From the NCBI RefSeq assembly GCF_000026545.1, contig NC_011601.1: DNA of 64,000 bases; one strand, given 5' to 3'. Made by a program: the position numbers. Below, one piece after another: positions 30,001 through 36,000 of this stretch (within the stretch, counting starts at the first letter, position 1; every line of letters starts with the position of its first letter). The stretch is from Escherichia coli O127:H6 str. E2348/69. Its GTDB lineage: Bacteria > Pseudomonadota > Gammaproteobacteria > Enterobacterales > Enterobacteriaceae.

Positions 30001-33000
30001 ATATGATACTTACAGGTAAGCTTGGTACAATATATGCTCCTGATGGAATTTCAATGCATGTGGATCGTCGTAATGATAGTGTAAATATTGAAAATAGTGC
30101 AATAATTGTTAACCGTAGTAATCATCCTGCTCTACTTGAGGGACTTTCTTTTATGCATAGTAAAGTAGATGCTCATCCATATTATGATGGTTTGGGGAAA
30201 GGAGTTAAGAAATATTTTAATTTTACACCATTACATAATTATAATCATTTTTGTGACTTTATTGAGTTTAACCACCCTAATATAATCATGAACACAAGTC
30301 AGTATACATGCAGTTCATGGTAAATGAATTTGATATAGTTTATTTTGTTGTAATAAATGATTTGCAGGGTATTAGATATAAACATGAAAATTCCCTCATT
30401 ACAGTCCAACTTCAACTTTTCCGCCCCGGCAGGATACTCTGCTCCCATTGCTCCTAATCGTGCTGAAAATGCCTATGCGGATTACGTTTTGGATATAGGT
30501 AAGCGAATACCACTTTCCGCAGCAGATTTAAGCAACGTATACGAAAGTGTAATACGCGCCGTCCATGACAGCCGTAGCAGGCTTATCGATCAGCATACAG
30601 TCGATATGATCGGCAACACTGTACTTGATGCTTTGAGCCGATCACAGACATTTCGTGATGCCGTAAGCTATGGCATTCATAATGAGAAGGTACACATTGG
30701 TTGCATTAAATACAGAAACGAATACGAGCTTAACGAAGAATCTTCTGTCAAAATTGATGATATTCAATCACTAACCTGTAACGAATTATATGAATATGAT
30801 GTCGGGCAAGAGCCAATTTTCCCCATTTGCGAAGCAGGAGAAAACGATAACGAAGAGCCTTATGTCAGTTTTAGTGTTGCGCCAGATACTGACTCTTATG
30901 AGATGCCATCGTGGCAGGAAGGACTGATTCACGAGATTATTCATCATGTTACTGGATCTAGCGATCCATCTGGAGATAGTAATATAGAGTTAGGACCCAC
31001 CGAGATTCTCGCACGTCGTGTCGCTCAAGAACTGGGATGGAGTGTTCCCGACTTCAAAGGATATGCAGAGCCAGAACGTGAAGCTCATCTTAGGTTACGT
31101 AACCTGAATGCCCTTCGACAGGCTGCCATGAGGCATGAAGAGAATGAGAGGGCTTTCTTCGAAAGGCTGGGTACGATCAGTGACCGATATGAGGCGAGTC
31201 CTGATTTCACAGAGTATTCCGCTGTGTCTAACATAGGATACGGATTTATCCAGCAACATGATTTTCCTGGATTGGCTATCAACGATAATTTACAGGATGC
31301 AAATCAGATCCAACTGTATCATGGCGCCCCTTATATTTTTACATTTGGGGATGTGGACAAACACAATCAGCGATGATTCGTCTTTGCAGTGACATAAGGT
31401 TACTATTCATACATTTTAACGGAGTTGATGATGGGTAATCGTGCAACATACAACAGAGACAAATGTCTTATATGACCGCGCGAAGAATGAGTTTAATCCA
31501 ATAGATATATCATCTTATAATGTTTCCGACCGTTCATGGAGTGAAAGTCAAATAATGCAATCTTATCATGGCGGAAAGCAAGATCTTATTAGTGTGGTAT
31601 TAAGTAAAATTTAGTAATTTTATCCAGTGTAGTGGATTTGTTGCATGGATGGAGTTGGTAACAAATTGTGTGGTTGGCAATTCTTGGCGGATCACGGAAA
31701 TGGGCAATGTCGCTGAGGACTGGCAAATGGCTATGATCCGCTTTATTATCGGGTTTGGTGACCGCCTTGACGGTCACTTTTAAAAAAATCATTTTCACAG
31801 AGTGGTAAACAGGCTGCTAATAAGTAGCATTCTCAGGAGTCCTGATGCGCCCTACGTCCCTCAACTTGGTATTACATCAGTCATCAACGTCGAGCTCAAT
31901 GTCAGATACAGATATCGAGTCTCTTGTAAAAGCATCGAGCGTTCAATGGATAAAAAATAATCCGCAACTTCGTTTCCAGGGGACTGATCATAATATATAT
32001 CAGCAGATTGAAGCAGCACTCGATAAGATTGGCTCTACAGAGACAGGGCGTGTACTCCTGAATGCTATTGAATCAATATCCCGACTTAAATCAGAAACAG
32101 TGGTAATACACCTCAACTCTTCCAGACTAGGAGTTATGGCACATAGAGATATAGATGCTGAGAACCATCGGGGGACTGGTTCCGATTTTCACTGTAATCT
32201 GAATGCAGTTGAATATCCCTGTGGGGAGGGGATTAGCGTGGTGGACTTTCATGCGACTATTGTTTTTCATGAGTTGCTCCATGTTTTCCACAATTTAAAT
32301 GGGGAGCGTTTGAAAGTTGAGAGTTCCCGACCAGAATCACAAAAATACTCTCCACTTTTACTCGAAGAAGCCAGGACTGTTGGGTTGGGGGCTTTTTCAG
32401 AGGAGGTGCTTTCAGAAAATAAATTCCGCGAAGAGATTGGGATGCCCCGTAGAACCTCCTACCCGCACGACTCAGCTCTTATTCATGATGACAATACAGT
32501 GAGTCTGGGATTCCAACAGGTAAGACTGCATCCATTGCTTTAGCTGTGTTTCTTGTGCTGAATATATATTGGTGGGGCAAACGGAGGCACACAAAACTTT
32601 GCACTGGATTGCAAGGCTTTGTGCTATTCCGATAGTGGTTCAGGTGGAGTACCCCACCTTTTCATCAAGCCAGCCCACCCACCACTGCATCATTTCTCTG
32701 CGCTTATAGAGATACTGAGCATGGTTGTAAATTCAGCAAACGACGCAATGTGTTTGACAAAAAATTAGCGCAAGAAGACAAAAATCACCTTGCGCTAATG
32801 CTCTGTTGTAGGTCACTAATGCTATCTAAGTAGTTGATTCATAGTGACTGCATATGTTGTGTTTTGTCGCATTTTGTAGTCTGTTATTTAACCGTAAATA
32901 CTTATAAGCATGTGATTTTTAAATGATTTATATAATTTTGTCATCCTTTGGGTGAAAAAGGTTGAGTCGCAAAGCGGAATGCATCTAGCATAAAGCCTTA

Positions 33001-36000
33001 TTATTGATGAGGCTATCATGCGCGTACTGCTATTGTTACTACTTTCCCTTTTCATGTTATCGGCATTTTCGGCTGATAACCTGTTGCGCTGGCATGATGC
33101 ACAGCATTACACGGTGCAAGCCTCTACGCCGCTAAAAGCCAAACGCGCATGGAAACTGTGCGCGCTTTATCCCAGTTTGAAAGATTCATACTGGTTATCG
33201 TTGAACTATGGTATGCAGGAGGCTGCTCGCCGCTACGGTGTGGATTTAAAAGTGCTGGAGGCAGGCGGCTACAGCCAGTTGGCTACGCAGCAAGCACAAA
33301 TCGACCAGTGTAAACAGTGGGGTGCAGAGGCCATTTTGCTCGGTAGTAGCACGACGTCATTTCCCGACCTGCAAAAGCAGGTAGCAAGTCTGCCGGTGAT
33401 CGAACTGGTAAATGCTATTGATGCTCCCCAGGTGAAAAGCCGCGTTGGTGTGCCGTGGTTTCAGATGGGCTATCAACCAGGGCGATATCTGGTGCAATGG
33501 AGTCACGGAAAACCACTGAACGTGCTGTTGATGCCCGGCCCCGATAACGCCGGGGGCAGTAAGGAGATGGTAGAGGGTTTTCGCGCAGCCATTGCCGGAA
33601 GCCCGGTACGTATTGTCGATATTGCGCTCGGTGATAACGATATTGAAATCCAGCGTAACCTGTTGCAGGAGATGCTGGAACGCCATCCAGAAATCGACGT
33701 CGTTGCCGGAACGGCCATTGCGGCAGAGGCGGCAATGGGGGAAGGGCGCAACCTGAAAACGCCGCTTACCGTGGTGTCGTTTTATCTTTCACATCAGGTG
33801 TATCGCGGGTTGAAGCGGGGAAGAGTGATTATGGCAGCCAGCGATCAAATGGTCTGGCAGGGGGAACTGGCGGTTGAGCAGGCTATCAGGCAATTACAGG
33901 GGCAATCGGTGTCTGATAATGTCAGCCCACCGATTTTAGTCATGACGCCGAAAAATGCCGACCGCGAACATATCCGCCGCTCGCTGTCACCAGGGGGATT
34001 TCGTCCGGTTTATTTTTATCAGCACACATCAGCGGCTAAGAAATAACCTTCGCCATGTTGTGTCACCAGTAAATCTGCACTGAGTTTATGGCGTAAACGA
34101 CGAATTAACACATCGACGGTGCGCAGGTCAGGGTTTTCCACCCGACGCGCAGAGAGCATACGCAGCAGACGTTCACGGCTGAGAATTTCGCCGGGATTGG
34201 TCACAAACGCCACCAGCATTTCATACTCTGCGCGGGTCAGTTTAATCGGCTCTCCATCCCGCTCCAGCGTATGGCGCGACACATTCAGGCAATAACCGGC
34301 AAAGCGATAGCAGTTGTCCTGAGTGTGCGGTTGCGCCTGTCGCGCGAGGTCGATTCGCCAGAGCAAATTTTTCACTCGTACCACCAGTTCGCGCAGCTCC
34401 AGCGGTTTGGTGACGTAATCGTCTGCGCCCATTTCCAGCCCAACAATACGGTCAATCCGATCGCTGCGTCCGGTAACCAGAATAATCCCCACCGTTGAGC
34501 GTTCTCGCAGGGCGCGGGTTAACATCAGGCCATTTTCATCGGGCAAATTGATATCCAGCAGAATCAAATCCACCGGCTGATTCTGCATAATTTCCCGCAG
34601 CCCGGCACCGCTCGCCGTAACGGAAACGGTATACCCCTCCTGAGTGAAGTAAGACTGTAATCGCGCCTGGGTAACCGGCTCATCTTCAACAATAACAATG
34701 TGATGTGGCATCAGAGGGTTTTACTCATTCTGTTCATATCTGTTCATATTCTGCCGTAAGCTATTCATCCTGACCAGTGCCGCTGTTCATATTTGCTCAT
34801 TAAGATCGCTTCACTAAACCATAATTTTACAGGGGCTATTATGCGGAAACTCTGGAACGCGCTACGCCGACCCAGTGCTCGTTGGTCGGTACTGGCGCTG
34901 GTCGCTACTGGGATTGTGATTGGCATTGCGCTGATTGTATTGCCACACGTTGGGATCAAAGTCACCAGCACAACCGAATTTTGTGTCAGTTGCCACAGTA
35001 TGCAACCGGTGTATGAAGAATATAAACAGTCGGTGCATTTCCAGAACGCCTCCGGCGTGCGAGCTGAATGCCATGACTGTCATATCCCGCCGGATATTCC
35101 AGGCATGGTGAAGCGCAAACTGGAAGCGAGCAACGACATTTACCAGACCTTTATTGCCCACTCCATTGATACACCTGAGAAATTTGAAGCCAAACGCGCG
35201 GAACTTGCCGAGCGTGAATGGGCGCGAATGAAAGAAAACAACTCGGCAACCTGCCGCTCCTGCCATAACTACGATGCGATGGATCATGCGAAGCAGCATC
35301 CTGAAGCGGCGCGTCAGATGAAGGTGGCAGCGAAAGATAATCAATCCTGCATCGACTGTCATAAAGGTATTGCCCACCAGTTACCGGATATGAGTAGTGG
35401 CTTCCGTAAGCAGTTCGATGAGCTGCGCGCCAGTGCTAATGATAGTGGTGACACGCTGTACTCCATTGATATTAAGCCGATTTATGCGGCGAAAGGCGAT
35501 AAAGAAGCGTCTGGTTCTCTGCTGCCTGCTTCGGAAGTGAAAGTCCTTAAACGTGACGGCGACTGGCTGCAAATTGAAATCACTGGCTGGACGGAAAGTG
35601 CAGGACGTCAGCGTGTACTCACCCAATTCCCAGGTAAACGCATCTTTGTTGCCTCGATTCGTGGTGATGTGCAGCAGCAGGTGAAAACACTGGAGAAAAC
35701 CACCGTTGCCGACACCAATACCGAGTGGAGCAAGTTGCAGGCCACTGCGTGGATGAAGAAAGGCGACATGGTGAACGATATCAAACCGATCTGGGCTTAT
35801 GCGGATTCGCTGTACAACGGCACCTGTAACCAGTGCCACGGCGCACCGGAAATATCCCACTTTGACGCTAACGGTTGGATCGGCACGCTCAACGGCATGA
35901 TTGGCTTTACCAGCCTCGATAAACGTGAAGAACGCACCTTGTTGAAATATCTGCAAATGAATGCGTCTGACACCGCAGGTAAAGCTCACGGCGATAAGAA

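Follow-up and report, generated by a model that had tools for sequence, protein, structure and literature searches.

Phage HK022 integrates at an attB between torS and torT; replacement of the torS promoter there, together with its effect on expression, has been published (Carey et al. 2019). Those authors list E2348/69 among the lysogens (Supplementary file 1), with a torT-torS distance of 45,626-bp, and the prophage name PP4 and its effector list are likewise on record (PMC5685641, PMC2697328). Here we describe a window of 64,000 nucleotides from Escherichia coli O127:H6 E2348/69 (NZ_LT827011.1, 1056001-1120000), in which the interval between nleD and torT, 32544-33017, is read as containing the attR (POB') of PP4, integrated by way of a lambda-family tyrosine recombinase at attB(HK022) between torS and torT. 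We put the probability of this reading at about 0.96. The attR is real but ordinary, its site, recombinase type and occupancy in E2348/69 all having been published previously; fixing this end of PP4 to the base is of use in annotating the prophage, in deleting it and its effector genes cleanly, and in predicting its excision products.

The right-hand junction of PP4

PP4, a lambdoid prophage of 45.5 kb, sits between the divergently oriented torS and torT, which are 82 bp apart in empty genomes. The junction of phage and chromosome on the torT side is the crossover within the core at 32946-32956 (Table 1). The last cargo gene and the first chromosomal gene are separated by 474 bp with no intact gene. 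A first-pass annotation had placed the junction between the end of nleD at 32543 and the start of torT at 33018, and the prophage presumably between torS and torT; annotation and homology bear out the former, and the locus map, the empty sites and the flanking repeat agree with the latter. Homology to the window extends only from 32946 rightwards (from 32951 where the core differs) in >5,000 E. coli genomes that lack the prophage, and on alignment NC101 and K-12, whose sites are empty, show B, core and B' with no insert, in a torS-torT gap of 82 bp only. The alignment to prophage-free torS-torT regions that had been proposed (NC101, K-12; >5,000 genomes) thus located both attR and its core.

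The AT-rich stretch that had been singled out does hold the junction, and can be refined: phage DNA accounts for about 85% of it (32544-32945/56), only the last 61 bp being chromosomal. The accompanying claim that composition and gene content change within this stretch was right as to the switch from phage to chromosome, whereas GC shifts only at the start of torT (0.39 in 32544-32945, 0.42 in 32946-33017 and 0.53 in torT; 0.44 in nleD), so that composition alone cannot place the junction. A natural boundary at 32544, where the match to NZ_LT903847 begins exactly, was considered and rejected, as this accession is the engineered effector-deletion strain EPEC1.

By sequence comparison, 32544-32945 is phage DNA containing an integrase relic, sib/tI and a P arm like that of lambda; native torT upstream DNA is confined to the 61 bp of 32957-33017. 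The hairpin downstream of nleD is common to DNA 3' of IntS-type integrase genes, and a terminator-like match falls at 32597-32616, in a count no higher than chance expectation. Scanning 32400-33150 for promoters and terminators gave one match of each kind, not above shuffled sequences, and these matches were therefore kept out of the evidence; an Rfam scan of 32300-33200 matched nothing up to an E-value of 1. The relic, a partial pseudogene in RefSeq, was compared with the C-terminal sequence of intact IntS (...GIYNHAQYLDKRREMMQWWADWLDEK...), and records an old exchange of integration modules. The sib element is identical at 50/50 positions to the 'sib transcription processing site' of X51962 and invariant across lambda, HK022 and mEp235; RNA from its minus strand forms a stable fold of -24.3 kcal/mol (z = -5.2). 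The alignment with lambda and HK022 attP is ungapped from sib through the core to the P' arm, and predicts a lambda-like spacing of P1, P2, P'1-3 and the IHF and Xis sites. The AGGTCACTAAT of P1 shows no change among four attP sequences, and the candidate H1 would match the IHF consensus, WATCAANNNNTTR.

Table 1. Features at the right-hand end of PP4 (window positions) and predicted recombination products
Feature	Position	Strand	Basis or remark
nleD, last cargo gene of PP4	31845..32543	+	ORF; RefSeq: T3SS effector zinc metalloprotease NleD
Hairpin downstream of nleD, possible terminator	32587..32625	+	conserved in LF82, beside intS in NZ_AP027850
IntS/P4-type integrase relic, last ~30 codons, IYNHAQYLYKRREMMQWWVGWLDEKVGYST*	32640..32732	-	translation, DNA alignment
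sib/tI hairpin, int-transcript retroregulation site	32757..32806	-	HK022 X51962 annotation
P1, predicted arm-type Int site	32810..32821	+	aligned to lambda 'int 1' 27583-27602
H1, predicted IHF site, AATCAACTACTTA on minus strand	32827..32839	-	identical to lambda, HK022
P2, predicted arm-type Int site, inverted	32841..32851	-	lambda 'int 2' 27615-27634, 20/20 identical
X1...X2, predicted Xis-binding region, named by homology	32853..32885	+	TATGTTGTGTTTT, TGTAGTCT conserved with lambda, HK022
H2, candidate IHF site, AATCACATGCTTA	32905..32917	-	at lambda H2 position; one consensus mismatch
C, predicted phage core-type Int site, ATCCTTT	32943..32949	+	identical in HK022, mEp235
11-bp identity block CTTTGGGTGAA common to attL, attR, attB	32946..32956	+	empty-site and repeat comparison
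7-bp overlap GGGTGAA	32950..32956	+	aligned to lambda core 27724-27738 and HK022
B', predicted bacterial core-type Int site, AAAGGTT	32957..32963	+	identical in empty sites K-12, NC101, ST131, M25631H
Native torT upstream region with torT control region	32957..33017	+	100% identical to NC101, K-12
Candidate IscR site	32992-33016		coordinates placed from type 2 motif
torT, first chromosomal gene	33018..34046	+	ORF; annotation
Predicted attP, across the joint			…TTTTGTCATCCTTTGGGTGAATAAGTTGTATATT…
Predicted restored attB			…GGTGCACTTTGGGTGAAAAAGGTTGAG…

Core repeat, integration module and alternative readings

Within the 50-kb locus there are exactly two copies of the core CTTTGGGTGAA (L001:1433 and L001:46946), one at each prophage end, where 0.012 further chance copies would be expected. 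The second copy is attL, lying 45,513 bp upstream of the attR core, 11 bp from torS and beside the integrase gene. That integrase and attL are outside the window had been anticipated, and the upstream search suggested for them found both, 73 bp apart and 12.6 kb upstream of window base 1. The statement that the att core could not be defined holds for the window taken alone, whereas data from outside it fix the core at 32946-32956. The uninterrupted empty site of NC101 and K-12 equals the left flank of attL, the core and the right flank of attR; the core is a direct repeat present at both ends, with the integrase at one of them, and attP is intact in free phages. The 11-bp attP annotated in mEp235 coincides in position with the same core, and an attP rebuilt from attR and attL by joining their phage arms is colinear across the joint with that of HK022 and mEp235 (93.2% identity) and with that of Gally (90.3% over 100%), identity to lambda being 77%.

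PP4 Int shares 97% identity with its HK022 counterpart and 75% with that of lambda (for Xis, 100% and 99%, respectively), with the catalytic residues R212, K235, H308, R311, H333 and Y342 invariant. It has the HK022-type P282, K283, K287 and R319, at positions that Dorgai and colleagues, in 1995, are said to have identified as core-specificity residues. As in HK022 Int, D99 and R329 are also found, both of which are among the determinants of core specificity (PMC10863862). Int orthology, specificity residues, core sites and arm-type layout, compared by homology, all mark the integration module as HK022-type. By the lambda/HK022 paradigm, Int and IHF would have joined attP to attB, and excision would recombine attL with attR and need Int, Xis, IHF and Fis. 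In the prophage, sib is unlinked from int, so that int transcripts from pL may escape RNase III retroregulation at induction.

Of the competing explanations, the one that survives best, albeit an unlikely one, holds that the att-proximal module (32579-32956: relic, sib and P arm) predates the remainder of PP4 or came from another source. Either the PP4 body and nle cargo would then have entered, by recombination, an HK022-type prophage already in residence, or the module would have passed from one phage to another, leaving an attR that is true, yet not a record of PP4's own arrival. A module ~96% identical from 32579 onwards does abut torT in the unrelated P22/Sf6-like Gally (LF82) and in NRG 857C, and the IntS relic is proof that integration modules have been exchanged at least once before; mosaicism of this kind, however, is normal in lambdoid phages and leaves the junction in place. 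Likewise, nleD, the relic, sib and the outer P arm recur in O157/O55 prophages, whose core differs, and nleC-nleD-torT is found at >=80% of a 4-kb query in two E2348/69 assemblies only, but PP4 has just one int-xis pair and one attL/attR pair, and these enclose one complete lambdoid gene set.

Still less probable is that attR is a fossil, the prophage being locked in and recombination at the site lost, as might be read from the frameshift annotations in the tape-measure and gpJ genes and from an overlap base unlike that of HK022. Both int and xis are intact, the arm-type and core-type sites are all conserved, and the overlap is GGGTGAA at attL and attR alike, as excision requires. The tail tape-measure and J (gpJ) genes are annotated as frameshifted nonetheless, and PP4 may therefore not form particles even if excision is possible.

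We give next to no credence to a boundary at or just past the nleD stop, with the entire AT-rich 474 bp as chromosomal torS-torT intergenic DNA, which would fit the uniformly low GC of 32544-33017, rising only at torT, but is refuted by the empty-site alignments: the empty gap is just 82 bp, empty genomes lack any match to 32544-32945 at the torS-torT locus, and 32757-32945 is the sib and P arm of HK022/lambda.

Occupancy of the site and control of torS and torT

Junctions of the attL type were found in 194 of 5,426 genomes and those of the attR type in 197 of 5,426; the torS-torT site is occupied in about 3.6% of complete E. coli genomes. The overlap allele that E2348/69 carries at both attL and attR is rare. 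Among four empty torS-torT regions compared, variation is confined to three core positions (-4, O1, O3), and the G allele, present in 5/46 lysogens as against about 1.5% of all genomes, looks commoner in lysogens. It is conceivable, though we regard it as doubtful, that the attB/attP core here is a small hot spot of allele exchange between phage and host; the alleles, instead of having drifted neutrally, could then be 'site-affinity' variants in which attP and attB are co-adapted, or scars that Int-mediated heteroduplexes left behind. The notion that the common attB allele GCACTTA is refractory to integration (host escape) was rejected, since 24/46 attL sequences in the FASTA of Carey et al. 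have GCACTTA. Supplementary file 11 of the same authors, a machine-read alignment, gives base A for E2348/69; this was disregarded because their FASTA (file 9) has G in 5 attL sequences, one of them within the file part containing the E2348/69 record, and because two independent assemblies have G.

On the other side of the prophage, 11 bp separate the attL core from the GTG of torS, and over ~120 nt the P' arm shows no difference from HK022 (100% identity), an attL-torS arrangement that fits the torS rewiring described by Carey et al. In that work a shared IscR site lies on the torT side of attB, and torT transcription is the same in lysogens. By extension from Carey et al. 2019, with PP4 inserted, torS would be cut off from the shared IscR site and its native promoters and would instead be transcribed from a promoter within the P' arm; torT, on the attR side, would retain its native control. 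The predicted outcome is a surplus of TorS relative to TorT, with torCAD no longer expressed aerobically. The expression effects reported there (torS up, torT unchanged, aerobic torCAD lost) are those of MG1655(HK022) and NRG 857C only. As torS is annotated as frameshifted in E2348/69 and in other strains, the regulatory consequence could be moot in E2348/69. A difference of 1 nt in torS length (2744 against 2745 nt) may inactivate TorS. These observations connect an EPEC reference strain with the published mechanism, in which a prophage captures torS transcription and alters TMAO respiration, and involve no new principle.

PP4 among related prophages and phages

Prophages carrying nleD in O157:H7/O55:H7 share with PP4 the nleD 3' flank, the IntS relic, sib and the outer P arm, at 96.8% identity to 32890; their homology stops before the core, which argues that att specificity and site differ from those of PP4. 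In the Gally (AIEC LF82) / NRG 857C prophage (PMC9928086; PMC6814406), both the PP4 site and the att-proximal module with its IntS relic are shared, but this is a P22/Sf6-like tailspike phage without nle cargo, with A as its overlap allele where PP4 has G. The lambda attP/attR (POB') presents the same order of sib, P1, H1, P2, X1/X2, H2 and core, with P1, H1, P2 and sib nearly identical to those of PP4; lambda differs in its core, GCTTTTTTATACTAA, and in its attB at gal-bio, the specificity residues of PP4 being HK022-type. The body of PP4, lambda-like with a J tail fibre and T3SS effectors, is unlike HK022, and in the inner P arm (32886-32935) identity between the two falls to about 75%. With HK022 (Yagil et al. 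1989; X51962), PP4 nevertheless shares the chromosomal target, C, C', B and B', the arm-type sites and an identical sib, the cores ATCCTTT-AGGTGAA-TAAGTTG (HK022) and ATCCTTT-GGGTGAA-TAAGTTG (PP4) differing at overlap position 1, A versus G.

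Position of the attR crossover

The first-pass annotation had placed a phage-chromosome junction between the end of nleD (32543) and the start of torT (33018), gene boundaries on which ORFs and annotation agree; no intact gene lies in the 474 bp separating the two. Of the 5,426 complete E. coli genomes compared, almost every one is homologous to this interval only from 32946 to 33017 and on into torT, the match starting at 32951 instead where the core differs. At the empty sites (attB) of NC101 and K-12, with a torS-torT gap of 82 bp, the sequence is ...CACGGTCGGTGCA-CTTT(G/A)GGTGAA-AAAGGTTGAGTCGC..., while E2348/69 carries ...GGTCGGTGCA-CTTTGGGTGAA-TAAGTTGTATATT... 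at attL and ...TTTTGTCATC-CTTTGGGTGAA-AAAGGTTGAGTCGC... at attR. The 11-mer CTTTGGGTGAA occurs exactly twice in the 50-kb torS-torT locus of this strain (L001), at window 32946-32956 (attR) and L001:1433-1443 (attL), 45,513 bp apart, the chance expectation of further copies being 0.012. Together, these observations locate the crossover at 32946-32956, with the torT ATG 61 bp downstream and the annotated torS GTG 11 bp away on the other side; alignment to prophage-free regions, as had been proposed, thus recovers the attR core and refines the predicted junction to base resolution. As for the accompanying claim of a compositional change, GC is low (0.39 at 32544-32945, 0.42 at 32946-33017) compared with torT (0.53), but the step falls at the torT start and therefore gives no position for the junction.

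Coordinates of att features were obtained by mapping annotated lambda and HK022 features onto the window; IHF, Xis and IscR sites, named by homology and consensus, are all predicted. For the sib/tI hairpin, the computed folding energy is -24.3 kcal/mol (z = -5.2).

Features of the nleD-torT interval and flanking genes (window coordinates)
Feature	Position	Strand	Remarks
nleD	31845-32543	+	ORF, annotated
Hairpin	32587-32625		between nleD and sib; downstream DNA of integrase relic
IntS/P4-type integrase relic	32640-32732	-	between nleD and sib; last ~30 codons (C-terminal)
sib	32757-32806		50/50 identical to HK022
P1	32810-32821		mapped from lambda/HK022
H1 (predicted IHF site)	32827-32839		homology and consensus
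P2	32841-32851		mapped from lambda/HK022
Xis region (predicted)	32853-32885		homology and consensus
Candidate H2	32905-32917		homology and consensus
C	32943-32949		mapped from lambda/HK022
Overlap GGGTGAA	32950-32956		mapped from lambda/HK022
B'	32957-32963		mapped from lambda/HK022
torT	33018-34046	+	ORF, annotated

Prophage PP4 and its surroundings

A 4-kb query spanning the junction matches EPEC O127:H6 E2348/69 at 100% identity, and over its first 36 kb the window equals NZ_LT827011.1 starting at position 1056001. The annotated record contains a single lambdoid prophage between torS and torT, the PP4 of the EPEC literature (PMC5685641, PMC2697328), and its gene order confirms what had been presumed of the insertion site: torS(-), int(-), xis(-), early genes, repressor region, replication and nin genes, Q and lysis, followed by terminase through J, lom, tail fibre, nleG-like, nleB2, nleC, an nleH fragment, an IS256 fragment, nleD and finally torT(+). 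Base 1 of the window falls within the nin region, so that int and attL lie outside it, as stated; an upstream search found both, 12.6 kb before base 1.

The nleH C-terminal fragment (a pseudogene, 31447-31614) and the IS256-family transposase fragment (31662-31783) in the nleC-nleD gap indicate decay inside the effector cassette. The tail tape-measure and gpJ genes are annotated as frameshifted (16810-19865 and 22256-25970): either PP4 may have lost the capacity to produce infectious particles, or the assembly contains indel errors. NZ_LT903847.1 ('O127:H6'), which matches from exactly 32544 and has tail-fibre genes directly upstream of the equivalent position, is not a natural variant but the engineered effector-less EPEC1, deleted from nleG to nleD. 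In the neighbouring chromosome, the agp-yccJ gap carries an inserted ISEc13 (IS4-like) transposase (42701-44074), next to an intact and unoccupied wrbA (44357-44953), a classic Stx-phage integration site.

Site occupancy and core alleles

With at least 80% of the query covered, attL-type junctions were present in 194 and attR-type junctions in 197 of the 5,426 genomes (3.6%); the published occupancy estimate is about 5%. The HK022 attB core (window 32946-32956; L001:1433-1443; comparison regions L002, L013, L014 and L015) is polymorphic at core position -4 and overlap positions O1 and O3, which account for all 3 variable columns of 117 in four strains picked for differing there. Exact 61-mer matches assigned attB haplotypes TTT-AGGTGAA to 3023 genomes, TTA-AGGTGAA to 1534, TTA-AGATGAA to 151 and the rare TTT-GGGTGAA, with the overlap allele of E2348/69, to 70. 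O1 is G at both attL and attR of E2348/69, and A in HK022, mEp235 and LF82. Published attL sequences comprise 24 TTA-A, 17 TTT-A and 5 TTT-G; the first of these counts dismisses the notion that TTA is refractory to integration, while the last (5/46, a small and non-independent sample) suggests that G may be enriched among lysogens.

Probable effect on torS and relation to known phages

Under the lambda/HK022 paradigm, the phage would have integrated at attB by Int with IHF, unlinking sib from int, and excision by recombination of attL with attR, which in PP4 carry the same overlap, would depend on Int and Xis together with IHF and Fis. Insertion at the HK022 attB cuts torS off from both its own promoters and the IscR site common to torS and torT; in lysogens torS is driven by a prophage promoter adjoining attL, torT transcription is unchanged, and with TorS in excess aerobic torCAD expression is lost (Carey et al. 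2019). Since the PP4 P' arm is 100% identical to that of HK022, E2348/69 probably undergoes this effect too, a strain listed in Supplementary file 1 of that study with a torT-torS distance of 45,626 bp; the 45,595 bp that separate torT from the annotated torS GTG fit this value, given the ATG start confirmed there. torS itself (L001:1-1422, upstream of the window) is annotated as frameshifted in E2348/69, NC101, an ST131 strain and M25631H (2744 nt, versus 2745 nt in K-12), a difference that may be lineage-wide or an annotation artefact, and that is relevant to whether E2348/69 has a functional Tor system.

Aligned to another genome, the hairpin and integrase relic correspond to the 3' end of a complete intS and the DNA beyond it. 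The same module of relic, sib and P arm adjoins torT in Gally, the P22/Sf6-like prophage of LF82, and in O157/O55 prophages it comes after nleD, the match reaching 32890, at which point the cores part; it is a trace of old integration-module swaps among lambdoid phages, an exchange that leaves the junction position unchanged. The attP reconstructed by joining the phage sides of attR and attL is colinear across the joint with free phages, at 93.2% for HK022 and mEp235 (90.3% for Gally, over the full query), and at about 77-78% for lambda, 434 and HK97; the annotated att of mEp235 ('type HK022', CTTTAGGTGAA) falls on the core found here. PP4 Xis is identical to that of HK022, and PP4 Int (97% identity to HK022 Int, 75% to lambda Int) keeps every catalytic residue and has the HK022 residues P282, K283, K287 and R319 at positions that Dorgai et al. 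1995 reportedly tie to specificity. Int also carries the HK022-type specificity determinants D99 and R329 (PMC10863862). The E2348/69 site is a textbook lambda-family attR and, integration site and strain both being published, a feature already known.
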